From Mobula hypostoma (taxonomy: Eukaryota), in the NCBI RefSeq assembly GCF_963921235.1, contig NC_086097.1:32242001-32306000 (forward strand): a stretch of DNA of 64,000 nucleotides, written 5' to 3'. The notes beneath the pieces are model-generated. The model was given only the letters and a program-made list of their open reading frames with translations. It made no database searches and had not been told where the DNA came from. Shown here one piece after another: positions 1 through 55,630 of this stretch. The translations under genes and the position numbers were made by a program. Positions within the stretch are counted from its first letter, which is position 1. Every line of letters starts with the position of its first letter.

Positions 1-350
1 GGAATAAAGTCCTAGCCTGTTCAATCCTAATAACTCATGGCCCACATCCTGGCAACAGCCTTGTCAATTTTCTCTGCACTCTTTCAGATTATGAAGACAC
101 GCAGTCCTCTTTTATTGTCATTTAGTAATGCATGCATTAAGAAATGATACAGTATTTCCTCCGGTGTGATATCACAAAACACAGGACAGACCAAGACTGA
201 AAAAACTATATCTTTCCTGTAGGTACATGACCAGAACTGCACACAATACTCCAAATAAGGCCTCACCAAGATCCTACACAACTTCAACACAGCATCCCAA
301 CTCCTGTACTCAGTGCTCTGACTGAGGAAGGCCAGCGTGGCAAAAGCTTC
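1..350 (-). mobile_element. CR1-type LINE RT fragment, interrupted at ~84-205 by the 3' tail of another LINE
   Basis: LVRPYLEYCVQFWS motif. Confidence 0.8.
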
Positions 351-935
351 CTAGAGATGCTGCCTGGCCTGCTGCGTTCACCAGCAACTTTTATGTGTGT
401 TGTTTGAAATTCCAGCATCTGCAGATTTCCTCGTGTTTGCGTTTTTAAATTCACTACAGCGAAGCCTCTTCCGGTGATACCTACACTGAAAGAGTTTAAA
501 TCTTCTCTTCGACGGAAGTTCGGTAAAACCATCTCTCACTGCTCCCCATCTGTAATTTCTTCGGCTCTTCAACTTTTCGACCACATTTTGACTCAGACTC
601 TCTTGGCTCCATCCCTCCCCCTCCTGTCTTCTCCTATCATTTCAGATCCCCCCCTCTCCCTCCAACTTTCAAATCTCATACTAGCTCTTCTTTCAGTTAG
701 TCTTGATGAAAGGTCTTGGCCCAAAACATCGACTGTACCCATTCCTAGAGATGCTGCCTGGCCTGCTGCATTCACCAGCAACTTTTATGTGTGTTGCTTT
801 ACGACCCTATCTACCTGTGACAAACAAGAGAAAGTCTGCAGATGCTGGAAATCGGAGCAACACACACAAAATGCTGGAGGAACTCAGCACTCAACAGGCC
901 AGGCAGCATCTATGGGGAAAAGTACGGTCGGCATT
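351..935 (+). mobile_element. Penelope-like element fragment: tandem pseudo-LTRs with ORF start, plus an inverted pLTR piece
   Basis: Direct repeat ctagagatgctgcctggcctgctg.ttcaccagcaacttttatgtgtgttg at ~351 and ~745; decayed hammerhead-like motif at 698-735. Confidence 0.65.
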
Positions 936-16028: not shown

Positions 16029-17772
16029 AAAACATCGACTGCTTATTCCTTTCCATGAATGCTGCCTGACCTGCTGTTCCTCCAGCACTTCGCACTCGTT
16101 ACTTTGGATTTCCAGCATCTGCAGAATCTCTTGTGTTTTTCATTAAAACATGCTCTCTAATCCAAGCAGCATCCTGGTAAATCTCCTTTGGATCCTCTCT
16201 AATGACTTCACGTCCCTCCTACAATAATGTGACCAAAATTAAACACAATAGTCCAAGTGTGCATTACCTCACAGCTCTTGAACTCAATCACCCGACTAAT
16301 AAAGGCCAACACATCATACACATTCTTAACCACCCTACCAACTTCTGGCCTTCTATGGTCACGTTTTTAAACAATTCTGAAATTCTGGGATTTGGAAATT
16401 CAGTTCCCCAAATAGCTCTAAAGCCCCCCACACCCCCAAACCACAGACTCCTTGTATTGCAAGCCAAAGACACCCCCCCCCACAAAGCTGATGCCCATAC
16501 ACAAACCCAAAGATCGTAAATCCAAGATCCCTGGACCCAATCTCTACACTGGGTCCCATATCCAAACTTCCTGACCCATCAACTCAGACCAAAGACCCCA
16601 GACTCATGACCTGAGTCCCCTCCTAAACAGTTGTCCCTGAGACAGACAGAGTCCTTGTAGTTTTCAATTCACTGTTGTAATGACCTGTGTGAACAGTATG
16701 CAAAGCTCAAAGTTCAAACTAAATCTAATATCAAATTACATGTACGTTACCATATTTTACCTTGAGATTCGCTTCCTTACAGGGTTTTACAGGAAAAAAT
16801 ATGAAATACAATATACATAAACAAAGACTGACGAACAACCAATGTGCAAAAGACAAACTTTATAAAAAAATCTTTGAGAACATGAGCTGTAGAGTTTTGA
16901 AAGTGTTGAAAGTGAGTCTGTAGGCTGCAGAGTTGTGGCAATTTAAGTTATCCACACCAGTTCAGTAGCTTGAAGACAAGCTTTTCCCTTCACTCTTACA
17001 CCACCCTCCATTTTCCTTTCATCCACGTACCTATCTGCAGTAAGAGACTCTTAATGAATCTGTCTCTGTCACCACATCTGGCAGTTGTTCCCTGCACCCA
17101 CCACCCTCTGTGTTAAACACATCAGTAACTATACACTAAAGTTATATTTTTATTTCCTTTACAAGGACGGGGAATAAATGCAATCATGCCTGCTGCCTTG
17201 ATAACCCCAGCAAGTAAAACAGTTTACTGTACATAACTCTGCCACCTCCCCACCTTTGTATTCAGTTCCCCAAACAGTAAACAATAGCACTTCCGTAACG
17301 ACTCACTGTACCCACGCTCCGGCCGTTTGCAAATCACGTTCTACAACATCCTGATCCTCTGTGTCACAGAGCTCAACCATCTCTATTTCAATAAATCGCT
17401 TACGAAATTAGCACACAGAACTCAGAACAGCATTGGGACATAAAAAAGTGCAGCTTCTGAGGCCCACTTAGCATGCCCACAACTTACAAACATCTTTAGA
17501 ACATGGGAGGAAACCAGGTCACCCAGAGGAAACCTACATGGTCACGGGGAGAACATAGAAACTCCTTACAGTCACGGGAACTGAACCCCGATCTCACAGC
17601 TGTAGCTGTAATAGCGTTATGCTACCGTGCCAACCCACCATGGCCGACCGTTCCACAGAACATACAATCAACGCCCCATGCCAATTCAGAGTGAAACCTT
17701 GCTACTCCCTCTCCCACCCAGCCACCCGTCTGGCAGAAGGGTGCCCTGTTGCTACAGAGACCCCTCCCTTAC

Positions 17773-24194: not shown

Positions 24195-25305
24195 GCAGTA
24201 CTGAGGTGAGGGTCTCACTGTGGGAGGGGAGGTACTGTAGGAGGTTCTCACTGAGGGATGGGCAGTACTGAGGGGTCTCTCTGAGGGAGGGGTGGTACTG
24301 AGGGGAGGTTCTCATGAGGGATGGGCAATACTGAGGGGCGGGTGGTACTGAGGGAGAGTCACACTGTGGGGGGGTGGTACTGAGGGAGGGTCACACTGTG
24401 GGAGAGATGGTTCTGAGGGAGGGTCACACTGTGGGAGGGGTGTTACTGAGGGAGGGGTGTTACTGAGGGAGGGTCACACTGAGGGATGGGTGGTACTGAG
24501 GGAGGGTCACACTGTGGGGGGGTGGTACTGAGGGAGGGTCACATTGTGGTAGGGGTGGTACTGAGCAAGGGTCACACTGTGGGGGGGGTGGTACTGAGGG
24601 AAGGTCACACTGTGAGAGGTGTTACTGAGGGAGGGTCACACTGTGGGAGGGGAGGTACTGAGGGAGGGTCACACTGTGGGAGGGGAGGTACTGAGGGAGG
24701 GTCACACTGTGGGGGGGTGGTACTGAGGGAGGGTCACACTGTGGGAGAGGTGTTACTGAGGGAGGGTCACACTGTGGGGGGGTGGTACTGAGGGAAGGTC
24801 ACACTGTGAGAGGTGTTACTGAGGGAGGGTCACACTGTGGGAGGGGAGGTACTGAGGGAGGGTCACACTGTGGGAGGGGAGGTACTGAGGGAGGGTCACA
24901 CTGTGGGGGGGTGGTACTGAGGGAGGGTCACACTGTGGGAGAGGTGTTACTGAGGGAGGGTCACACTGTGGGAGGGGAGGTACTGAGGGAGGGTCACACT
25001 GTGGGTGGGGAGGTATTGAGGGAGGGTCACACTGTGGGAGGGGAGGTACTGAGGGAGGGTCACACTGTAGGAAGGAGTGGTACTGAGGGAGGGTCACACT
25101 GTGGGAGGGGTGGTACTGAGGGAGGGTCACACTGTGGGAGGGGTGGTTCTGAGGGAGGGTCACACTGTGGGAGGGGTGGTTCTGAGGGAGGGTCACACTG
25201 TAGGAAGGAGTGGTACTGAGGGAGGGTCACACTGTGGGAGAGGAGGTACTGAGGGAGGGTCACACTGTGGGAGAGGAGGTACTGAGGGAGGGTCACACTG
25301 TGGGA
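24195..25305. repeat. G-rich ~34-bp minisatellite (ggtactgagggagggtcacactgtgggagggg), ~30 units; short relative at 21900-21980
   Basis: Tandem units read directly. Confidence 0.95.
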
Positions 25306-25494
25306 GAAGCAGTGTTTTGGGTTCGGTCTGCATACAGCAAGTCATTGAGAAATACCCATTGAAGGAATGCTAGAAATGGATAAGCAATCATCCCACCCTC
25401 CCCAAAGGCATTCATCCAGACAAACAACATTTCAGTGCACTGGAGCTGTTCCTCTGCTCAGATTACAAGGCCCCGAGCTGTCACCCATACTTAC

Positions 25495-25645
25495 ATCTCT
25501 CATTAGCTGCTGGAGCTTTTCTTTCGTCATGTAAGACGAGTGTCGTGGAGTCAGATTCTTGCCCTTCTCTATGGTGGACAGCAAATCCTTCTTGTGATTT
25601 TGGAACTCTCTCAGGAAGTCCACCAACAGAGAGCACTGCTCCTGC
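25495..25645 (-). CDS. SYNE2-like: Rod exon (W)QEQCSLLVDFLREFQNHKKDLLSTIEKG...SYMTKEKLQQLMRD
   Basis: 151 nt, phase 2-0, |gtaagt; resembles recalled LEQCGRVLELLKQYQNFK...SYMGKENL. Confidence 0.92.
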
Positions 25646-25915: not shown

Positions 25916-27435
25916 CCAAAAGTTGAGGCCCAAAGACTGAAGCCCCGAGTCTGTGAATCTCTGAGAGTCCACTAGGGAAGTCAGGACCCAGTGTCTGCAA
26001 ATCTATGAGACCACCAGAGGCTGAAGGCTGAAGGTGGCCTGCCTTGGCCTTCGCGGACTATGTATGTGCCTTTGGGAGTGAGGGAGGAACATGGCTTGCT
26101 TTGTTGTTGTTTTGTCAAGTGCTGTGTTCTGTTTTGTTGCGTCCTGCGTTGCTCTGCCTAGCACTGTGGGCACGCTATGCTGGCGCTGGAAGACGTGGCA
26201 ACACTTTCAAAGTACAACCAGCACATCCTTGGGTGTGTTGGTTTATTAATGTGAATGACACAGTTCATTGTACGTTTCAATGTATGTATGACACAGAGGA
26301 ACATCTGTTAAGGGATGGTGCAGTCTTTACAGCGACTAAACTGAGTGCCCAACAATTTCCAGGCTCAATCCTGACCTCGTGCGCTGCATGTGTGACATTT
26401 TCAAGTTCTCCCTGTGATCACACAGGGTTTCTTTGGGGCACTGGTGTTCAGTCAGATGGGAAGAACTTGGGTGGGGTTTGGAGAGGGTGCAGAAAGACCT
26501 GGATTAGAGGGTTTGTGTTATCATGAGAGGTTGGACACATTGGGTTTAATTTCCCTGGGGGCAGAGGCTGAGAGAGATGAGCAAGAGTATAAAAGGCATA
26601 ACCTCTTATAGTACACTGAGTGGACAGCCAAGACTGGTCACCTCATTATAGGAAGGATGTGGAAACTTTAGAAAGGGTGCAGAGGAGATTTATCAGGATG
26701 CTGCCCAGACTAGAGAGCACATCTATAGGTTAAGTGAGCAAGGGCTTTTGTCTTTGAAGCAAAGGAGGAGGAGAGCTGCCTTGACAGAGGTGTATAAGAT
26801 GATAAGAGGCATAGGTTGTGAGATATAGACTATGTGCAGGCAGATGGAATTATCGTGAGCTGTAGAGCCTGTCCCTATGTTGTACTGTTCTATGTCCTAG
26901 AACTTAAAACATTACAGCACAGTACAGGCCCCTTGGCCAACAATGTTCTGCAAATCTCTTAACCAATTCTAAGATCAATCTAACCCTTCCCTCCCACATA
27001 GTCCTCCATTTTTCTTTCACCTATATGCCTATCTAACAGTTTCTTGAATGTCCCTAATGTATCCGCCTCCACCACCACCCCTGGCAGGGCGAACCATGCA
27101 CCCACCACCCTCTGCATAAAATAAAAAAACTACCTCAATATCTCCCCATACTTCACTCCAATCAATATACCTTGTATTTGCCATTTCTACCACGTGGAAA
27201 AAATCTCTGCCTATCCACTCCATGTGCCTTGTCATCTTGTACAACTCTATCAAGTCACCTCTGTTCCTCCTTCACCCCTCCCTCGCTCTACCCAACCCCA
27301 CAAGACATGCTCTCTCTTCCAGGCATCATCTGTGTTCTGTGAATTTCCATGTGCATCCTCTTCCTGACCACTGTGTGCTGCCCGGAACCTGACATACAAC
27401 ATATTCACAGCAACTGTGTGCTTATGAGAGATGAA

Positions 27436-30400
27436 TCACTCACCAGTCCTAGAGGTCGCCCGCAGTGATGTCCCAAGCGTTACTACCCAGTCCTGGAGGT
27501 TGAAGCAACACTCACAACACGCTGGAGGAACTCAGCAGGTCGGGCAGCATCAGTGGAAATGATCAGTCAACGTTTCGGGCCGGAACCCTTTGACTGATCG
27601 TTTCCAGGGATGCTGCCCGACCTGCTGAGTTCCTCCAGTGTGTTGTGAGTGTTGCTTTGACCCCAGCATCTGCAGATTATTTTGTGTTTACAGTCCTGGA
27701 GGTTGCCTAGATATCCCATGAGTCACTACCCAGTCCTAGAGGTCACCCTGGATATCTCATGCATTACTAACCAGTCCTGGAGGTTGCCCATGGCGATGTC
27801 CCATAAGTTACTAACTAGTCCTGGAGGTTGCCCATGGCGATGTCCCATAAGTTACTAACCAGTCCTGGAGATTGCCCACAGCGATGTCCCATAAGTTACT
27901 AACCAGTCCTGGAGATTGCCCACAGCGATGTCCCATAAGTTACTACCCAGTCCTGGAGGTCGCCCTGGATATCTCATGCGTTACTAACCAGTCCTGGAGA
28001 TTGCCAACAGCGGTGTCCCATAAGTTACTACCCAGTCCTGGAGATTGCCAACAGCGGTGTCCCATAAGTTACTACCCAGTCCTGGAGGTCGCCCTGGATA
28101 TCTCATGCGTTACTAACCAGTCCTGGAGATTGCCCACAGCGATGTCCCATAAGTTACTAACCAGTCCTGGCGATTGCCCACAGCGATGTCCCATAAGTTA
28201 CTAACCAGTCCTGGAGATTGCCCACAGCGATGTCCCATAAGTTACTAACCAGTCCTGGAGATTGCCCACGGCGATGTCCCATAAGTTACTAACTAGTCCT
28301 GGAGATTGCCCACGGCGATGTCCCATAAGTTACTAACCAGTCTTGGAGATTGCCCACGGCGATGTCCCATAAGTTACTAACCAGTCCTGGAGATTGCCCA
28401 CGGCGATGTCCCATAAGTTACTAACCAGTCCTGGAGATTGCCCACGGCGATGTCCCATAAGTTACTAACCAGTCCTGGAGATTGCCCACGGCGATGTCCC
28501 ATAAGTTACTAACCAGTCCTGGAGATTGCCCACGGCGATGTCCCATAAGTTACTAACCAGTCCTGGAGATTGCCCACGGCGATGTCCCATAAGTTACTAA
28601 CTAGTCCTGGAGATTGCCCACGGCGATGTCCCATAAGTTACTAACCAGTCCTGGAGGTTGCCCACGGCAATGTCCCATAAGTTACTAACCAGTCCTGGAG
28701 GTTGCCCACAGCGATGTCCCATAAGTTACTAACTAGTCCTGGAGGTTTCACACAGCGATGTCCCACAAGTTACTAACCAGTCCTGGAGGTTGCCCATGGC
28801 GATGTCCCATATGTTACTAACCAGTCCTGGAGGTTGCCCATGGTGATGTCCCATAAGTTACTAACCAGCCCTGGAGGTTGCCCATGGCGACGTCCCATGC
28901 GTTACTAACCAGTCCTGGAGATTGCCCACAGCGATGTCCCACAAGTTACTAACCAGTCCTGGAGGTTGCCCACAGCGATGTCCCATAAGTTACTAACCAG
29001 TCCTGGAGATTGCCCACAGCGATGTCCCATAAGTTACTAACCAGTCCTGGAGATTGCCCACAGCGATGTCCCATAAGTTACTAACCAGTCCTGGAGGTTG
29101 CCCATGGCGATGTCCCATGCGTTACTAACCAGTCCTGGAGGTCGCCCACAGAGATGTCCCAAAAGTTACTAACCAGTCCTGGAGGTTGTCCACAGCGATG
29201 TCCCACAAGTTACTAACCAGTCCTGGAGGTTGCCCACAGCGATGTCCCACAAGTTACTAACCAGTCCTGGAGGTTGCCCACAGCGATGTCCCACAAGTTA
29301 CTCACCAGTCCTGGAGGTTGCCCACAGCGATATCCCACAAGTTACTAACCAGTCCTGGAGGTTGCCCACAGCGATGTCCCACAAGTTACTAACCAGTCCT
29401 GTAGGTTGCCCACAGCGATGTCCCACAAGTTACTAACCAGTCCTGGAGGTTGCCCACAGTGATGTCCCACAAGTTACTAACCAGTCCTGGAGGTTGCCCA
29501 CAGCGATGTCCCACAAGTTACTAACCAGTCCTGGAGGTTGCCCACAGCGATGTCCCACAAGTTACTCACCAGTCCTGGAGGTTGCCCACAGCGATATCCC
29601 ACAAGTTACTAACCAGTCCTGGAGGTTGCCCACAGCGATGTCCCACAAGTTACTAACCAGTCCTGTAGGTTGCCCACAGCGATATCCCACAAGTTACTAA
29701 CCAGTCCTGGAGGTTGCCCACAGCGATGTCCCACAAGTTACTAACCAGTCCTGGAGGTTGCCCACAGCGATGTCCCACAAGTTACCAACCAGTCCTGGAG
29801 GCTGCCCACAGCGATGTCCCACAAGTTACTAACCAGTCCTGGAGGTTGCCCACAGCGATGTCCCACCAGTTACTAACCAGTCCTGGAGGTTGCCCACAGC
29901 GATGTCCCACAAGTTACTAACCAGTCCTGGAGGTTGCCCACAGCGATGTCCCACAAGTTACTAACCAGTCCTGGAGATTGCCCACGGCGATGTCCCACAA
30001 GTTACTAACCAGTCCTGGAGATTGCCCACGGCGATGTCCCATGCGTTACTAACCAGTCCTGGAGGTTGCCCACAGCGATGTCTCATGCATTACTAACCAG
30101 TCCTGGAGGTTGCCCACAGCAATGTCCCATGCGTTACTAACCAGTCCTGGAGATTGCCCACAGCGATGTCCCATAAGTTACTAACCAGTCCTGGAGGTTG
30201 CCCATGGCAATGTCCCATGCGTTACTAACCAGTCCTGGAGATTGCCCACAGCGATGTCCCATGCGTTACTAACCAGTCCTGGAGATTGCCCACAGCGATG
30301 TCCCATGCGTTACTAACCAGTCCTGGAGGTTGCCCACAGCGATGTCCCATAAGTTACTAACTAGTCCTGGAGATTGCCCACAGCGATGTCCCATAAGTTA

Positions 30401-31410
30401 CTTACCAGTCCTGGAGGTTGCCCACAGCGATGTCCCATAAGTTACTAACTAGTCCTGGAGATTGCCCACAGCGATGTCCCATAAGTTACTAACCAGTCCT
30501 GGAGATTGCCCACAGCGATGTCCCATGCGTTACTAACCAGTCCTGGAGGTTGCCCACAGCGATGTCTCATGCGTTACTAACCAGTCCTGGAGGTTGCCCA
30601 CAGCAATGTCCCATGCGTTACTAACCAGTCCTGGAGATTGCCCACAGCGATGTCCCATAAGTTACTAACCAGTCCTGGAGGTTGCCCATGGCAATGTCCC
30701 ATGCGTTACTAACCAGTCCTGGAGATTGCCCACAGCGATGTCCCATGCGTTACTAACCAGTCCTGGAGATTGCCCACAGCGATGTCCCATGCGTTACTAA
30801 CCAGTCCTGGAGGTTGCCCACAGCGATGTCCCATAAGTTACTAACTAGTCCTGGAGATTGCCCACAGCGATGTCCCATAAGTTACTTACCAGTCCTGGAG
30901 GTTGCCCACAGCGATGTCCCATAAGTTACTAACTAGTCCTGGAGATTGCCCACAGCGATGTCCCATAAGTTACTAACCAGTCCTGGAGATTGCCCACAGC
31001 GATGTCCCATAAGTTACTAACTAGTCCTGGAGATTGCCCACAGCGATGTCCCATAAGTTACTAACCAGTCCTGGAGATTGCCCACAGCGATGTCCCATAA
31101 GTTACTAACCAGTCCTGGAGATTGCCCGCAGTGATGTCCCAAGCGTTACTAACCAGTCCTGGAGATTGCCCACAGTGATGTCCCATGCGTTACTAACCAG
31201 TCCTGGAGGTTGCCCACAGCGATGTCCCATAAATTACTAACTAGTCCTGGAGATTGCCCACAGTGATGTCCCATAAGTTACTAACCAGTCCTGGAGATTG
31301 CCCACAGCGATGTCCCATAAGTTACTAACCAGTCCTGGAGATTGCCCGCAGTGATGTCCCATGCGTTACTAACCAGTCCTGGAGGTTGCCTGCAGTGACA
31401 GTCCATGCTT
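27436..31410. repeat. 44-bp tandem array, ~85 units, derived from an exon end plus its 5' splice site
   Basis: Unit gttactaaccagtcctggagattgcccacagcgatgtcccataa; the highest-coordinate unit overlaps coding exon 31374-31553. Confidence 0.97.
27503..27690. mobile_element. Palindromic Penelope-derived non-autonomous element with 15-bp TSD. Relatives near 36500-36600, 38000-38280, 39545-39745, 53297-53415, 55308-55625, 58600-58720 and 61835-61970
   Basis: Inverted arms aagcaacactcacaacacgctggaggaactcagcaggtcgggcagcatc; TSD cagtcctggaggttg at 27488-27502 and 27691-27705. Confidence 0.8.
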
Positions 31411-31553
31411 CTTTGGCAGTCTGGACTATTTGTTGTGCCTCTCCAGCGAGGGTCGGGTTGGAGGTGACCAGCTGCTGAGCCATTTCCCTTAGCAGGGCGA
31501 GTTCCTGTTCCGTCCGCTGCAGCTCGCACTCCAACTCCTTCAGAGCGTCCAGC
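31374..31553 (-). CDS. SYNE2-like: Rod exon (R)LDALKELECELQRTEQELALLREMAQQL...AKEAWTVTAGNLQD(W)
   Basis: 180 nt, phase 2-2; donor TG|gttagt lies in the first unit of the 44-bp array. Confidence 0.85.
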
Positions 31554-31654
31554 CTGGGGGTGGGTTACAGGGTCGCAGTTAGTTCAGGCAGACTCAGACA
31601 AGTGTACAGGTGGAGGGGGTGGGGACTGAGACCCGGCTCGAGGACGGAGGGATC

Positions 31655-31930
31655 GGTTACCCAGCCTCGTGGACCAAGGTGTGAGGGAAGCAGAGGGTTA
31701 CCTCCATGTCAGCCTGCTCGTGGCTCAGGCCAAGCTGGCCATTTAAGAGTCCAGGCGGCAGGCATTCGAGGGCTCTGCCCAGGCCAACTGTCTGGGGTTA
31801 CGTCCATGCCCAGGTGTCCCTGGAAACATCCACTGGTACAATGGCACATTTCTAGCACGGGTGGGCACCTGAGGGGTTCAAGTGTGTTGTGGACAGCGAC
31901 GATTGCGTTGTGTAATTGTAAATACTGTGA
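31655..31930 (+). mobile_element. Decayed Tx1/L1-like LINE ORF2 3' end
   Basis: LLVAQAKLAI*ESR resembles the Tx1 C-terminal motif LLLGLAK.AI.KSR (recalled). Confidence 0.45.
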
Positions 31931-31934
31931 ACCA

Positions 31935-32755
31935 TCAAGGCTGTACAGGAATGAGACATACCAGCTAGTGGAGTGGTGTCGCAGCAATAACCTTGCACTC
32001 AACATCAGTAAGAGGAAAGAGCTGATTGTGGACTTCAGGGAGGGTAAGACAAGGGAACACATACTAATCCTCATATAGGGATCAGAAGTGGAGAGAAAGA
32101 GCAATTTCAAGTTCCTAGGTGTCAAGGCCTCTGAGGATCTGACCTGGTCCCAACTTATCAATGCAGCCATATTTCATTGGGAGTTGAAGAAGATTTGGCT
32201 TGTCACTCAAAACTCTCGAAAACTTCCACAGGTGTACCGTGGAGAGCATTCTAACACGTTGCATCACCGTCTGGTATGCGGGGGCGGGGGGGGGTGCGGT
32301 TCCTATTGCACAGGATCGAAGTAAACTGCAATCAGTCAGCTCCATCATGAGCACTAGCGTCCTTAGTATCCAGGACATCTTACAAGGCATGGTGCCTCAG
32401 AAAAGCGGCTTAAGGACCCCCACCACTCAAGACATGCCCTCTTCTCATATATACTGTCAGGAAGGAGGTACAGAAGCCTGAAGGCACTCACTCAGCGATT
32501 CAGGAACAGCTTCTTCCCCTCTGACATCTGACTCCTAAATGGACAGTGAACCCATAAACACTGCCTCACTACTTTTTAAAATTACTGATTTTGCACTAAT
32601 TACTTTGATTTAACTATTTATTATAAATATATATACTTACTGTAATTAAGTTTTTTCTCTGTATTTATCATGTATTGCATTGTACTGCTGCCGTAAAGTT
32701 AACACATTTCATGACATATGCCGGTGATGTTAAACCTGATTTTCATTCTGATTCT
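31935..32755 (+). mobile_element. Rex1-type LINE 3' fragment, same family as 10990-12668
   Basis: LVEWCRSNNLALNISK; aaacctgatt tail. Confidence 0.88.
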
Positions 32756-33039
32756 CTCCTACTTTCCTCCTGTGCAAAGTGTCGGGAGGGAAAGGCTGGC
32801 TTATCACAAGCTGGCAAATGATAAGATGTGGAGTCAACAGGTATAATAGGAGATTACTGGGACCAGGGGGTTGAGAGGTGGGCAGTGATAACTATGTTGT
32901 GATTTGAAATTGTAAACAGAGCACATCATGAAGTGCTGTAATTCTGTCCTTCTGTGGTCCTTTAATATACTGAATAAACAACCTCTGGGAAATGGAATGG
33001 AGAGTGGTTGGTGGAGGTGTTAATCCCAACGGTACCTAC

Positions 33040-33596
33040 CTCCCCTGTACGGCCGGAACTGTGGCTTCAGGTAACAACATGGCTTGTGCACATTGCTCAA
33101 TTTCTTGCAGGTGTTGGATGAGTCGCTCTTGCCCTGTGCGCATCTTCTCCTGAGGGGGATGCTCCTCCCGTCCAGTGGCATCTCTCTCCCGGTCCAGCAC
33201 TGCCACCAAGTCCTGGCAACGAACCCTGCCGCCCAAACTCCCGTCGCTGAGGCAGAGGCCCGCCGCCTCCAGTGTCTCATCCAGCTGTCGGGCCCTAACC
33301 CATAATCGCTTGGCCTCCTCCTCTGACCGTGGGCTGGGTGTCTCTGCAGCTGCCTGCTGCCCCTGTCCAGCTCCATCCCAGGGCTCTGCGGCCCACAGTG
33401 ACCGCAGGAAATGGTCCAGGCCTTGGAGCGCTGAGGCAGCAGCCTGCATCTGTGCCCCCATCTCCTGACATCGCTGGGCATAGGCATGGGCAATGGAGCA
33501 CACTGCACGGTGATCGACAGGCTCTAGGCTGTCTGGACGCTCACCACACACGACTTCACTGCCTTCAATCAGGGTCCCAGCCGCAGTCTGAAGTTG
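33040..33596 (-). CDS. SYNE2-like: Rod exon QLQTAAGTLIEG...ALQGLDHFLRSL...LLPEATVPAVQG(R)
   Basis: 557 nt, phase 0-2; resembles recalled nesprin-2 TLKALEDFLASL and LKDPTVPAVKHR. Confidence 0.9.
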
Positions 33597-33947
33597 CTGC
33601 AGAGTAAGTAACAAAGTCACAGTGCAGAAACAAGCCCTTTGGCCCAACTCTGCCATGTTGGCCAAACCCCTTATCTAAGAAATTATGTGCTGGCATTGCA
33701 AAGGTTACAGAGGAGGCCCACAAGAATGATCCCTGGGATACAAGGGTTAATATTTCAGGAGTGTTTCATGTCTCTGAGCCTGTACTCACTGCAGTTTCGA
33801 AAAATAGGATGGGGGTTTCACTGAAACATAACCAATATTGAAAGGCCTAGTCAGAGTGGACATGAAGAGGATGCTTCCAGTTGTGGGGGAGTCTAGGACC
33901 AGAGGGCACAACCTCAGAATAGAAGGGCAACATTTTAGAACAGAAAT

Positions 33948-37155: not shown

Positions 37156-38517
37156 CTGTAACAAACACATACAGCATTAACACCAGCACACAACCAACAA
37201 CAGACGTCTCTGTATCCTCCTCACTGGCAGTGAGAGAGGAGAAAAGTCACCAAAGGCTCCAGCAAATGTCTAGATGCATTTTGACTGGTCATATCACTAT
37301 CTGGTACAGAGGCCTGGAAAAAGCTGCAGAGGGTTGTAGATTCAGCCGGCTCCATTGCACGCCCAACCCTCCCCACTATCAAAGACATCTTCTAAAGGTG
37401 ATGCCTCAAGAAGGCAGTCTCCATCATTAAGGACCCTCATCAACTGGGACGTGCCCTCTTCTCATTAATATCACCAAGGAGGAGACACAGGAGCCTGAAG
37501 ACCCACACTCAATGATTCAGGAACAACTTATTCCCCTCCACCATCAGAATTCTGAAGAGTCCATGAACTGTTTTGCTGCCTTGCTCTATTTTGCTCTGTT
37601 TTTTCACTATCTACTGAGGACCTCCTGTAACTAATAAAGTGATCACTGAGTGTACGTTCCTGGTCTTCTGCTGCTGGAAACCATCCACTTCAAGGCTCAA
37701 CATGTTGTGCCTTCAGAGCTGCTCTCCTGTATACTACTGTTGTAATGTGTGGTTATCTGAGTTACTGTTGCCTTCCTGTCTGCTTGAACCAGTCTGACCA
37801 TTCTCCTCTGACCTCTCTCATCAACAAGGAGATTTCACCCACAGAACTGCTGCACAAAATCTCTTTTTTCTCTATTCTTATTGTAATTTACCATGTATTT
37901 TATGTCTTGCACTCTACTCCTGCTGCAAAACGAATTTCATGTCATGTCAGTGATACTAAATGTGATTCTGATTCTGGCAGGAGACTGCAGAGGATGAAAT
38001 CTGGGGCATTGCACCGACAGCAGGAGGAACTCAGCACGTCAGGCAGCATCGGGAGAAGGCAAAGGAGCGGCCCTCATTCTGAGTCAAACCCCGACACGAG
38101 GACTGAGAAAGGTGATGGTTAGTATAAAGGAGGGAAGGGAAGTGGTGAAAGAGGAGTCCGAGGTGATTGGTGGACTGAGGACGGGTGTGAGGGGAGTTGT
38201 GCCAGGTGAGGGCAGTTGGAGTAAGGCGTAGGGAGGGGAGTGCTGGAGATAGCTGCTGGAGGGAGGTAAAGAGGACCACAAGGGCTATCAGTCCCTGACT
38301 CTTTTAAGTAAAGGAGACGAAAGTGTGAACCATCAGGGGAGAGGGGTATGACAGACAGAATCAGAACCACAGAAGGGGTGGGTGGGTGGTGGGAGGGGGG
38401 GAGGTCAACTATATGTGCAGAGGGGGATGTAACCAGGAAGGGGAGAGAAGGTGAAGAGGGGCTGGAAGGTGAGGTTGGGGTGTGGTGATGTTCAGGCACA
38501 GAGGCAGCGGGAGGTAC

Positions 38518-38972: not shown

Positions 38973-40076
38973 CTGAGCACAAAGGAAAAGCACACAGCCC
39001 AGGTTAGACAGAATTTCAGCTGGGTGCTAACAAAAAGCAGATGTTAAACCGAGAACAGAGAGCTCTAAGACTGGACACTGGCTGAGAGGACAGAGATTAG
39101 CTTTATTTGTCACACGTACATCAAAACATCCAGTAAGTTGCATTGTTTTGCATTGACTGCCAAATTACAGTCTGCGGGTTGTGCTGGGCAGCCCACCAGT
39201 GTCACCACACTCCCAGCACCAACACAGCATGCCCACAACTTACTAACCCCAAGAGTACGACTTTGAAATCTGGGAGGAAACCCACACAGTCACAGGGAGA
39301 GTGTACAAACCCCTTATAGACAGCGGTGGGAATTGACCCAGGGTGATGTTTTAAAGCATTATGCTAACCACTACACTACTGTGCCTGGCTGGGAGGACAG
39401 GCTGTACACAGCTCCTGGGAGTTTCTAATTAGTGGCATCACCCATGGAGTCATACAGCACACAGACACAGCCCCTTTGGCAAACTCAGCCATGCCAGCCT
39501 GACCTAGTCCCACTTGCCAGCCTTTCACCCATATCCTTCTCTAGTAACACGTACAAAACACTGAAGGGAATCAGCAAGTCAAGCAGCACCTATGGAAAGG
39601 AATAAATAATCAACCTTTCTGTTCTGATGAAGGATCTTGGACCAAAACACCAAATGTTTACTCCTTTCCATTGACGCTGCTTGACTTGCTGAGTTCTTCC
39701 AGTATTTTGTACGTGTTACTCTGGCTTTCCAGAATCTGTCATGTTTCCAATTCTCTCCCAACTCTCCTATCCAATGTAATCTGGAGCAACGAGGATGACT
39801 TGGAAGGGTTGGGGTTATTGAGATTGGGTGAAACACAGGTAGAGGTCACTGAAATGAACCTTGGTGCCTACAATGACACCAACCATTCCTGTAACCAGTA
39901 ACCAATCTTCCCTCCTGCCTTTTGTTATGAGGATGAATCAGATCACAAAGAATCCTTCATCAGAATTCACTATCAGATCACAGAGAGTCCTTCATCAGAG
40001 ATCACTCATCTCTGCGGAATGAATCAGATCACAGAGAATCCTTCATCAGAGATCTCTCATCTTTGTGGAATGATAC

Positions 40077-40186
40077 CTTGTCACTACGTCACGGCTGCCT
40101 CGACCTTCCCTCTCTTGTTCCTCAAGGCCCTGAAGTTCTGTCCCACGGCGATCAGTCAAGGACAAAACCGGAATTCCAAACGACTC
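40077..40186 (-). CDS. SYNE2-like: Exon ESFGIPVLSLTDRRGTELQGLEEQEREGRGSRDVVT(R)
   Basis: Pyrimidine tract with tttag|; AG|gtatca; phase 0-2 is needed to bridge the neighbouring exons. Confidence 0.7.
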
Positions 40187-40214: not shown

Positions 40215-40778
40215 TAAGATCCGACCCCAACTCAGAGACAGGAACACAGTGAGAACTGACCCCGGTTCGGAGATAGGGACACAGTGAGATCTGACCCCAG
40301 CTCAGAGACGGGGGTACAGTGAGTTCTGGCCCCAGCTCAGAGATGGGGGTACAGTGAGATCTGGCCCCAGCTCAGAGACGGGGACACAGTGAGATCTGGC
40401 CCCAGCTCAGAGATGGGGACACAGTGAGATCCGACCCCAGCTCAGAGACGGGGACACAGTGAGATCTGGCCCCAGCTCAGAGACGGGGACACAGTGAGAT
40501 CTGGCCCCAGCTCAGAGACGGGGACACAGTGAGATCTGGCCCCAGCTCAGAGACCGGGGTACAGTGAGATCCGGCCCCAGTTCAGAGATGGGAACACAGT
40601 GAAATCTGACCCCAGCTCAGCGACAGGGACACAATGAAATTTGACCCCAGTTCAGGGATGGGGGCAGTGAGATCTGATCCCAGTTTAGAAATAAGGGTAC
40701 GATGAGATCCAATCCTGGTTGAGAGACAAGGGTACAGTGAGACCTGATCCCAGCTCAGAGGCAGGAGTACAGTGAGCT
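40215..40778. repeat. 35-bp minisatellite (acagtgagatctggccccagctcagagacggggac), ~16 units
   Basis: Period of 35 (e.g. 40386 and 40421). Confidence 0.95.
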
Positions 40779-41191: not shown

Positions 41192-42578
41192 CTCTTCCAT
41201 CATTTCAGGTGATCTTCCACAATCCTCTCCGGCTGGGGCATACACCACACGTCTGCAGTCTGAAGATTCCCCCAGTGCCTGGGAATAATTAGGAATGGGC
41301 TGACTTTCTCCTGGTAATGATTCCCGTCTGTTCTCCTGCGCAGGTTGTCCTACATCAAGGTCCGACACGGAGCTGCCTACTTGCAGGAGCCCACTGGCCG
41401 AGAGCTGGTTCGAAGCCCCACACGGGACAGAGCCGAGTCCCTCGCCTCTCACCCCATCATCACTGGGAGCTGTAATATCCTGAGGGGCCGCTGGTAACTC
41501 CCCTGTGGGCACCCTCACCTGCCCATCCCAAACCACAGGGTTATTCCCTGGTGGAGAGCAGCCACTCTGTTCCTCTGCACAGGGACTGACGCCCTCGGCC
41601 CTGGGGCTCCAAGTCACTGTGCCACGGTCCTGTTCGTGCTTGTCCTCTGGTACTGTTGTGGGCTGAGGTTCTTTGGCCCTCCGTGTGCTCTGTTCGTGGG
41701 AGTGGTATCCCCAAGCCTGTGATCCTGAGGCGGGCAGGCCGCTCCCTGCAGCCTGGGGTTCTTCATAGGCACGACACGGGCCTGGGTTTCCACCTGGGAG
41801 CCCCTGCCCCTGAAGGCTAAAGCCCCCAGAGGTGGGTGGAACACTTCCCTCTTCCTTTCCCAGACCCAAGGGCCAGTTCCCACCTCCTGTCCCCAAGTCT
41901 CCTGCTACCCAAGTTTCTGGGCTCTCCGACCAGCTCTGGTGGCCACCCTTGGTCACAGGGAGGTGTCCGGCCAGGCTCTCCAGGTTGGCAGGGGGACCTT
42001 TCTGAACTGGCCCCACTGTGCCAGTCCCCACTGGGGCCCCGGTCTGTCCTGCATCTACTGTGACTACCCCACCCCGTATTCCTGCTGGCTGACCGAAACA
42101 CGGGGCAACTCCAGAAGCATCCGGCTCCCACCTTCCGAGGACTCCCAGTCTCTGATGGAGGTTGTCGGCTTCCTTGACCCCCTCCAGCTCACTGGATTCC
42201 TGAAGTATGTTCTGTCCATCCTCACTGAGTGAGCAGGACAGATAGCAAGGAGGGGCAGAACTGTCACCCTCGACTACGGGGGCTCTGGAAGCTGTTGGAC
42301 TCCCCTCCACCACTCGGGTGGGACCTCTGCTCTCCAGCCCAGCACCCAGAACATCTTCATCCGGGTCACCCCCTGCCACCCCGGGTGGGCGGACAGCCTC
42401 GGAGTCCCTGCTGCACTTGGCTGCTCTGAGCTCAGTGGGTTTCTGTTCCTCCTTGCCAGCACAAGTCACCATCCTGGCTGGATCTCCGGACCACTCCATC
42501 CCAGCCAGCCGACCAAGTTCCTCCTGTGATCCAGTCTGGAGCAGCTCACCCTCCCTCCAGACCGCGGCACCCGGCTCC
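41192..42578 (-). CDS. SYNE2-like: Large 1387-nt exon, ~462 aa G/P/S/E-rich, probably disordered
   Basis: Longest ORF in the window (41066-42499) extends in frame to a ttttgcag| acceptor; GAG|gtaatc donor; phase 2-0. Confidence 0.82.
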
Positions 42579-55218: not shown

Positions 55219-55630
55219 CTGAAGTAGGAAGCAACAAGTGTTACTGACCAGTCCTCATGGGTCAGAGAGCCACACAGTGCAGCCTGAGCAAGCCAAACAA
55301 CTGACCGAAACACAGGAGATTCTGCAGATGCTGGAAGTCTGGAGCAACACACACAAAATGCTGGAGGAACTCAGCAGGTCAGGCAGCATCCATGGAAGGG
55401 GAATAAACACCCGATGTTTCAGGCAGAGACCCTTCATCAGGACTGGAAAGGAAGGGGGCAGAAACCAGAATAAAATTGGGAGAGGGGGAGGAGTACGAGC
55501 TGGTAGGTGATGGATGAGATCAAGTGAGGGGAGGGGGGAAGGGAATGGGAATGACGAGAAGCTGGGTGGGGATGGGTGGATGAGGCAAAGGGCTGAAGAA
55601 GGCAGAAGGACGGTAGACCGTGGAACTGAC

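Follow-up and report, generated by a model that had tools for sequence, protein, structure and literature searches.

A 44-bp minisatellite at an exon/intron junction of a nesprin-2-like gene in the ray Mobula hypostoma

A nesprin-2-like gene of Mobula hypostoma contains a 44-bp minisatellite (minus strand, 27435–31408) that starts at an exon/intron junction and repeats the splice donor of a coding exon into the intron behind it. It is most probably a junction minisatellite of the kind known from intron 7 (IVS7) of human F7, one that expanded near neutrally and whose pseudo-donors are mostly silent. The architecture has already been published for the human F7 kind, and the ray nesprin array is a large further example. 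All positions given below refer to the window, the whole stretch of 64,000 nucleotides that was analysed (NC_086097.1, 32,242,001–32,306,000, read on the forward strand).

The host gene

The 5' part of the gene occupies 4174–59718 of the window on the minus strand, with two CH domains, spectrin repeats and about 25 exons, which were placed as 25 ordered pieces by tblastn of the protein P0001. P0001, a nesprin-2-like protein of the stingray Hemitrygon akajei, was the best of 14 matches in a phmmer search with the exon upstream of the array. The source of eight of the 14 was looked up: seven were cartilaginous fishes and one was a lizard nesprin-2. In Pfam, P0001 has CH, Spectrin and KASH domains. 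The assignment to the nesprin-2 class was made on this protein, which has the CH pair, the spectrin repeats and the KASH domain, the window itself having CH fragments. The KASH end of the gene falls outside the window.

Three exons, all on the minus strand, frame the array. The upstream exon (33040–33596, 557 nt) is joined in RNA to 31553. The next coding exon (31374–31553) is 180 nt long, a multiple of three, and is supported by RNA-type contigs and by 92% identity to residues 1304–1364 of P0001; its 3' end forms unit 1 of the array. The downstream exon (25495–25645, acceptor at 25645) is 92% identical to residues 1365–1415 of P0001 and is in frame with the donor of unit 1. Across the array, the junction is colinear and without insertion in all eight of the homologous proteins compared (the 8 best long ones of the 14 matches), and the 180-nt exon is present in all four H. 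akajei isoforms. The residues encoded by unit 1 are those of P0001 and the intronic copies have drifted, which identifies unit 1 as the true end of the exon.

Pfam searches with single exons gave no family at the cut-off for the exon of the array. There was no match in a word-index search of proteins of 320–2000 aa, a range shorter than most orthologs, and an Atlas search gave no usable match.

Structure of the array

TRF called a tandem repeat at 27764–31390 with a period of 44, 82.6 copies and 93% matches. Anchoring on the donor gave 86 units including the exonic one, with the donor G at 31373, 31329 and so on to 27443, a copy number as counted in the assembly. Both methods bear out the preliminary description of an array of about 85 copies of 44 bp derived from the exon's own splice donor. 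Of the 86 anchored units, 82 are 44 nt long, three are 41 nt long and one follows an insertion.

Each unit is made up like the last 35 nt of exon 31374–31553 and intron positions +1 to +9. Unit 1 (31365–31408, minus strand) is this segment itself, with the authentic donor CTG/GTTAGT (G at 31373), the base at which both RNA-type contigs stop. The intronic array (27691–31364, minus strand) follows with units 2–84 and one partial unit, including the three 41-nt units and higher-order block duplications. A 188-nt palindromic interspersed repeat (27503–27690, no strand assigned) is inserted in a distal unit and is flanked by a 15-nt target-site duplication (27691–27705 and 27488–27502). Beyond it lies the terminal unit (27431–27478, minus strand), with a GTGAGT donor at 27438–27443 and a CAT at 27431–27433. 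The exon end is matched at 29 of 35 positions in unit 2 and at 22–28 of 35 in interior units; the best match outside the array, in the whole window and on both strands, is 22 of 35. The letters 17–30 nt upstream of the donor distinguish unit 1 from the intronic units.

The donor 9-mers of the 86 units fall into six types: CTG/GTTAGT in 65 units, CTA/GTTAGT in 10, CTG/GGTAGT in 5, CTG/GTGAGT in 3, CTG/GTAAGT in 2 and CTG/GTTGGT in 1. GT at +1/+2 is thus kept in 81 units, 80 of them downstream of the authentic donor, and is lost in the five CTG/GGTAGT units. Sixty-four downstream units have a 9-mer identical to the authentic one. The array has 44 distinct unit types; they are ordered and include duplicated blocks, and the ends of the array have diverged.

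The intronic part of the array contains 163 G-runs, two per unit, at a density of 1.94 per 44 nt compared to 0.62 elsewhere in the intron; the exonic unit has none. An adaptive gain of G-runs was considered and rejected: one or two ancestral changes followed by homogenisation suffice, and G-triplets are reported to be without effect in F7 (PMC1557585).

Each unit also has a CAG 5 nt before its donor, preceded, as judged from sequence only, by 9–12 pyrimidines in 20 positions (11–18 at the real acceptors of the gene). Recursive splicing in 5-nt steps via this CAG was set aside on account of the poor pyrimidine tract. Coding read-through of the array was also rejected, as any continuous frame through the consensus meets stops at every third unit.

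Donor strength and reading frame

Donors were scored by U1 duplex energy and by a frequency matrix; duplex energy overrates G-U pairs. On this scale the authentic donor has −6.8 kcal/mol, the GTAAGT units −10.7, the GTGAGT units −10.0 to −10.8 and the CTA variant −3.3. Five units pair better with U1 than the authentic donor does, while 16 of the 85 downstream units are weakened or dead. The five are GTAAGT in unit 12 (30884–30889) and unit 23 (30400–30405), GTGAGT in unit 42 (29564–29569) and unit 48 (29300–29305), and the terminal copy, all on the minus strand; their positions and their better U1 matches are those given in the preliminary description. At +3, +7 and +9 the terminal copy has other bases than the working donor.

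The authentic donor is weak for its gene. Compared to the 24 other donors, which were placed from tblastn ends, it is weaker than 18, equal to one and stronger than five, and it alone among the 25 has a T at +3.

Splicing from donor 1 to the acceptor at 25645 keeps the reading frame, and splicing from donor 2, at +44, shifts it. The first in-frame stop on read-through is a TAG at 31325–31327 (minus strand), within donor 2. The frame argument made earlier for this locus, that only the first donor keeps the frame with this acceptor and that later donors lie beyond the TAG, holds. A donor at +4 combined with an acceptor at 25641 would also be in frame, but was rejected with a U1 duplex of only −1.8 kcal/mol.

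Comparison with known junction minisatellites

The closest known system is the 37-bp VNTR of human F7 intron 7, in which only the most upstream intact donor is used and the pseudo-sites are functional yet silent (PMC1557585, Borensztajn et al. 2006). In F7 minigenes, 1–12 copies, or pseudo-sites with a CV up to 91, changed nothing, and G-triplets did not matter (PMC1557585). Only perfect pseudo-sites competed, with 70–90% use, and pseudo-site use fell with distance (PMC1557585). As in F7, the first unit of the ray array spans the boundary of an expressed exon, the donor is repeated in the intron (80 GT units), each unit has two G-triplets, and the most upstream donor alone was seen to be used, in both contigs available and for the major transcript form. 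Unlike F7, the ray array has 80 GT pseudo-donors rather than 4–8, its unit is exonic for 35 of 44 nt rather than 4 of 37 (PMC1557585), it includes natural variants stronger than the authentic donor, which is weak and has T(+3), and its host is a cartilaginous fish.

Junction-spanning minisatellites are also known in 6-16, CBS, LMNB2 and PDGF (PMC1557585). The CBS unit consists of 24 exon nt and 7 intron nt, and so is exon-heavy as in the ray, with 15–25 extra donors (PMC1557585); this 31-bp VNTR of exon 13/intron 13 is written c.1444_1467+7(16_21) (PMC2630376). The genes 6-16 and CBS splice from two pseudo-sites as well as from the real donor (PMC1557585), whereas the ray contigs, a thin data set, show no use of a pseudo-site. 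The 100-bp minisatellite of LMNB2 and the 81-bp minisatellite of PDGF intron 4 resemble the ray array in spanning the junction and in the use of the authentic donor alone, but have 10–18 copies (PMC1557585) where the ray has about 85. No junction-spanning case was found in the accessible part of PMC10078293, and a literature search for the ray nesprin minisatellite locus, with most subscription journals outside its coverage, returned nothing relevant.

The ray array is an unusually large natural case, with 80 GT pseudo-donors against 4–25 in the human cases treated in PMC1557585. The major transcript of this cartilaginous fish still takes the first donor, although that donor is weak and stronger copies lie behind it. 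The array would be a handy natural substrate for tests of 5' splice-site choice.

Donor use in RNA

Four of the 23 listed sequencing runs were compared with region 31286–33700, which covers array units 1–3 and ends upstream of the acceptor at 25645. The RNA evidence consists of assembled contigs from X6 and X8, two of the four RNA-type runs of M. hypostoma, both from one study; the other two runs compared, X11 and X19, are DNA runs of two related species. X6 was treated as RNA because one of its contigs skips the 1486-nt intron 31554–33039, a status taken from this contig and not from the run record.

In that contig (X6 record 17; 2655 nt, depth 11.5), 33039–33602 runs straight into 31552–31373, with no intervening letters, and a further 1046 nt lie outside the compared region. 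The seven exons predicted downstream, with a total of 1085 nt, could accommodate this stretch. The X8 contig (record 24; 588 nt) starts at 31373 and has 450 nt outside the region. Both exon-bearing contigs thus leave the genome at donor 1, and neither enters unit 2. In each contig the match ends one base beyond the exon, as it would with a G as the first base of the next exon. Contig ends and joints were read from tables dominated by LINE matches, with 2298 loose-end and 553 joint rows beyond those displayed. The major transcript form uses donor 1; assembled contigs drop rare and NMD-degraded forms, and a low-level leak, intron retention or exon skipping would be compatible with the data.

Leaky splicing without selection is the first of the alternatives to be weighed. 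A few to tens of percent of splicing would go through donor 2 or the GTAAGT units, on the pattern of 6-16 and CBS, yielding NMD substrates and a small loss of expression that depends on copy number or allele. The weakness of the authentic donor and the presence downstream of 64 identical and five stronger GT copies speak for it, as do the human precedents, which use the next two pseudo-sites (PMC1557585), and the array-type contigs in X6, which have a summed depth of 39.2 in the bin 31286–31366 (units 2–3). Spread over about 83 copies, however, this depth is about 0.5 per copy, compared to 11.5 for the mRNA contig, and although depth is a poor measure, the value is in line with intronic background. 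In X8 the depth in the same bin is zero, and both exon-bearing contigs stop at 31373. The nearest stronger donor, that of unit 12, lies 484 nt from donor 1 and would yield a 664-nt exon, and the use of pseudo-sites in F7 falls with distance (PMC1557585). We regard appreciable leakage as unlikely.

Related species

Tandem units were also found in both related species. In organism B (X11), a contig of depth 7.4 spans 31321–31987 and so includes the exon, donor 1 and unit 2 as far as +9, with 149 further letters; a second contig (depth 7.69) crosses 31364. In organism E (X19), a contig of depth 53.7 passes over 31364, its nearer end being 31 letters away, and a unique contig has a depth of 8.62. 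Organism E differs from the window at 92 letters and 6 gaps over 32849–33698, and the upstream exon is two residues shorter in both organism E and P0001.

The tandem units predate the splits from these two species and seem to differ in number among them. Array depth is about single-copy in organism B and about six times that in one contig of organism E, though depth gives only a weak hint of copy number. Finding the units in two related species makes an artefact less likely, and is compatible with either slow neutral persistence or function.

Origin and turnover of the array

A CAT at exon positions −34 to −32 (31405–31407) and the CAT at +11 to +13 of the terminal copy are exactly 44 nt apart when the two copies are aligned. 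A duplication seeded by microhomology should leave just such a match one period apart (PMC13167724), although the 3-nt match is short enough for chance; around CAT, 6 of 10 nt agree at the 44-nt offset. The terminal copy adjoins unique intron and so probably keeps the old donor. The suggestion in the preliminary description that its GTGAGT may be the ancestral donor gains from this spacing, and the terminal copy is probably the ancestral intron start.

Among the exact duplications within the array, the longest is one of 437 nt (11-unit offset), which includes both GTAAGT donors, followed by one of 223 nt (6-unit offset), which includes both internal GTGAGT donors. Unit 23 thus carries a copy of the event in unit 12, and unit 48 a copy of that in unit 42. 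Because each pair sits in an exact duplicate, the five stronger donors reduce to two mutations and the terminal copy. Set against the 16 of 85 units that are weakened or dead, this gives no sign of selection for strong decoys.

Under near-neutral expansion, a 44-nt segment over the exon end and donor, flanked by the CAT microhomology, would have been duplicated once. Slippage or unequal exchange would then have expanded the duplicate to about 85 copies, a process to which the block duplications attest. The exon-like part of the intronic copies has drifted, and unit 1 is under coding constraint. The spliceosome would take the most upstream donor, favoured, if the mechanism is that of F7, by exon definition and 5'-to-3' choice, and the two G-runs in each unit downstream of donor 1 may also favour it, again by analogy with F7. 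Transcripts that leak to donor 2 or to later donors would be frameshifted or meet the TAG, and would be cleared by NMD. The array would then be tolerated baggage and not a device.

Several observations count against near-neutral expansion with silent pseudo-donors. The authentic donor is weak, and its gap of about 4 kcal/mol to the GTAAGT units may exceed the range tested in F7. Perfect pseudo-sites competed in F7, and two pseudo-sites are used in 6-16 and CBS (PMC1557585). The tandem units persist in two related species. The RNA data are contigs only, from two samples of one study, and X6 has its array-type contigs.

If the terminal copy is the old donor, turnover of the array would have rewritten the working donor, from GTGAGT to the weak GTTAGT. 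A more far-reaching reading starts from this point. The array, with its 80 pseudo-donors and 163 G-runs, would have been retained at different lengths in three or more ray species and would set the efficiency with which this spectrin-repeat exon, whose skipping keeps the frame, is included or its intron removed. A splice site under concerted evolution would thereby let copy number regulate a giant nesprin in the manner of a dial. We consider this improbable. The array would carry greater weight only if its length alters splicing, or if an outgroup shows that repeat turnover rewrote the working donor.

Proposed splice competition

The preliminary description had proposed that the array might serve as a decoy for U1 or as a device for splice-site competition, with copy number as the tuning variable. 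As a selected device, it would bind U1 non-productively, and copy number would set the shares of productive, retained, skipped and NMD-bound transcripts. That a single intron has 80 GT copies together with 163 G-runs could be read in this way, as could the occurrence of units in three species and the 180-nt exon, whose skipping would keep the frame. There is also a resemblance to the decoy exons of SF3B1 intron 4, OGT and ARGLU1, in that extra non-productive splice sites lie in an intron of more than 1 kb with several competing 5' sites, a frequent feature of decoy exons (PMC6097662).

These known decoys, however, are highly conserved short exons that need both splice sites, including a U2AF-bound 3' site, and that give measurable intron retention (PMC6097662). 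The ray array is a variable tandem array that abuts the real donor, and its CAG has 9–12 pyrimidines in 20 where the gene's working acceptors have 11–18. Strong donors are not enriched among the units, the two exon-bearing RNA-type contigs leave at donor 1, with the exon included, and changes in F7 of copy number (1–12) or of CV (up to 91) left donor choice unchanged (PMC1557585). The wide difference in array depth between organisms B and E is a weak hint in the same direction. These results do not support the proposal, and a selected decoy is very improbable.

An assembly artefact, in which the array would be false or greatly over-expanded, could be argued from the count of 86 units, which is that of the assembly, but is extremely unlikely given the order of the 44 unit types with their duplicated blocks and diverged ends, the repeat inserted into a distal unit together with its target-site duplication, and the tandem units in independent runs of M. 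hypostoma and two other species.

TRF found four tandem arrays of more than 400 bp in the window. With four arrays, the chance that the seed of one spans a donor is roughly estimated at about 7.5%.

Structure and contents of the junction array

Across 27691–31373, every unit of the 44-bp exon/intron-junction array has a branch-point-like TAGTAAC that overlaps the donor. Upstream of the next donor, at a distance of 5 nt, lies a CAG. Each of these units also has two G-runs (163 in the array in total), which are absent from the exonic unit, the one formed by the exon end and the authentic donor.

The array is interrupted at 27503–27690 by a palindromic interspersed repeat of 188 nt, an almost perfect palindrome (89% self-complementarity across 166 nt; −130 kcal/mol as RNA) flanked by a 15-nt target-site duplication. 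It was inserted exactly at the cut position of a pseudo-donor, one of the intronic donor copies, and partial copies are found elsewhere in the window (348–438, 822–889, 16047–16138, 38020–38050 and 55308–55397). The length of the duplication points to arrival by retroposition rather than to a MER6-type insertion, as MER6 duplicates TA.

The downstream exon has AG acceptors at 25641 and 25645, 4 nt apart. Only 25645 keeps the frame with donor 1, the authentic donor, and it is 25645, not 25641, that matches the orthologs.

Other repeats and exons of the host gene

Other tandem repeats lie nearby in the gene – a 33-bp minisatellite of 34 copies (24198–25306) in the next intron, which contacts no exon; a 35-bp array (40217–40760) ending about 30 nt upstream of the acceptor of exon 40077–40186; and short 35/51-bp duplications (39937–40073) starting directly past the donor of that exon. 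Neither of the latter two copies a splice site of exon 40077–40186.

Among the proteins compared with the host gene, P0007 contains two copies of the junction motif, at residues 581 and 2201, and in P0012 the exon homologous to 31374–31553 looks to have been tandemly duplicated. The 1.37-kb low-complexity exon 41192–42562, between the CH domains and the spectrin repeats, is 80% identical to P0001 (nesprin-2-like, Hemitrygon akajei) and 30% to the sawfish protein P0002, which marks it as a fast-evolving insert.
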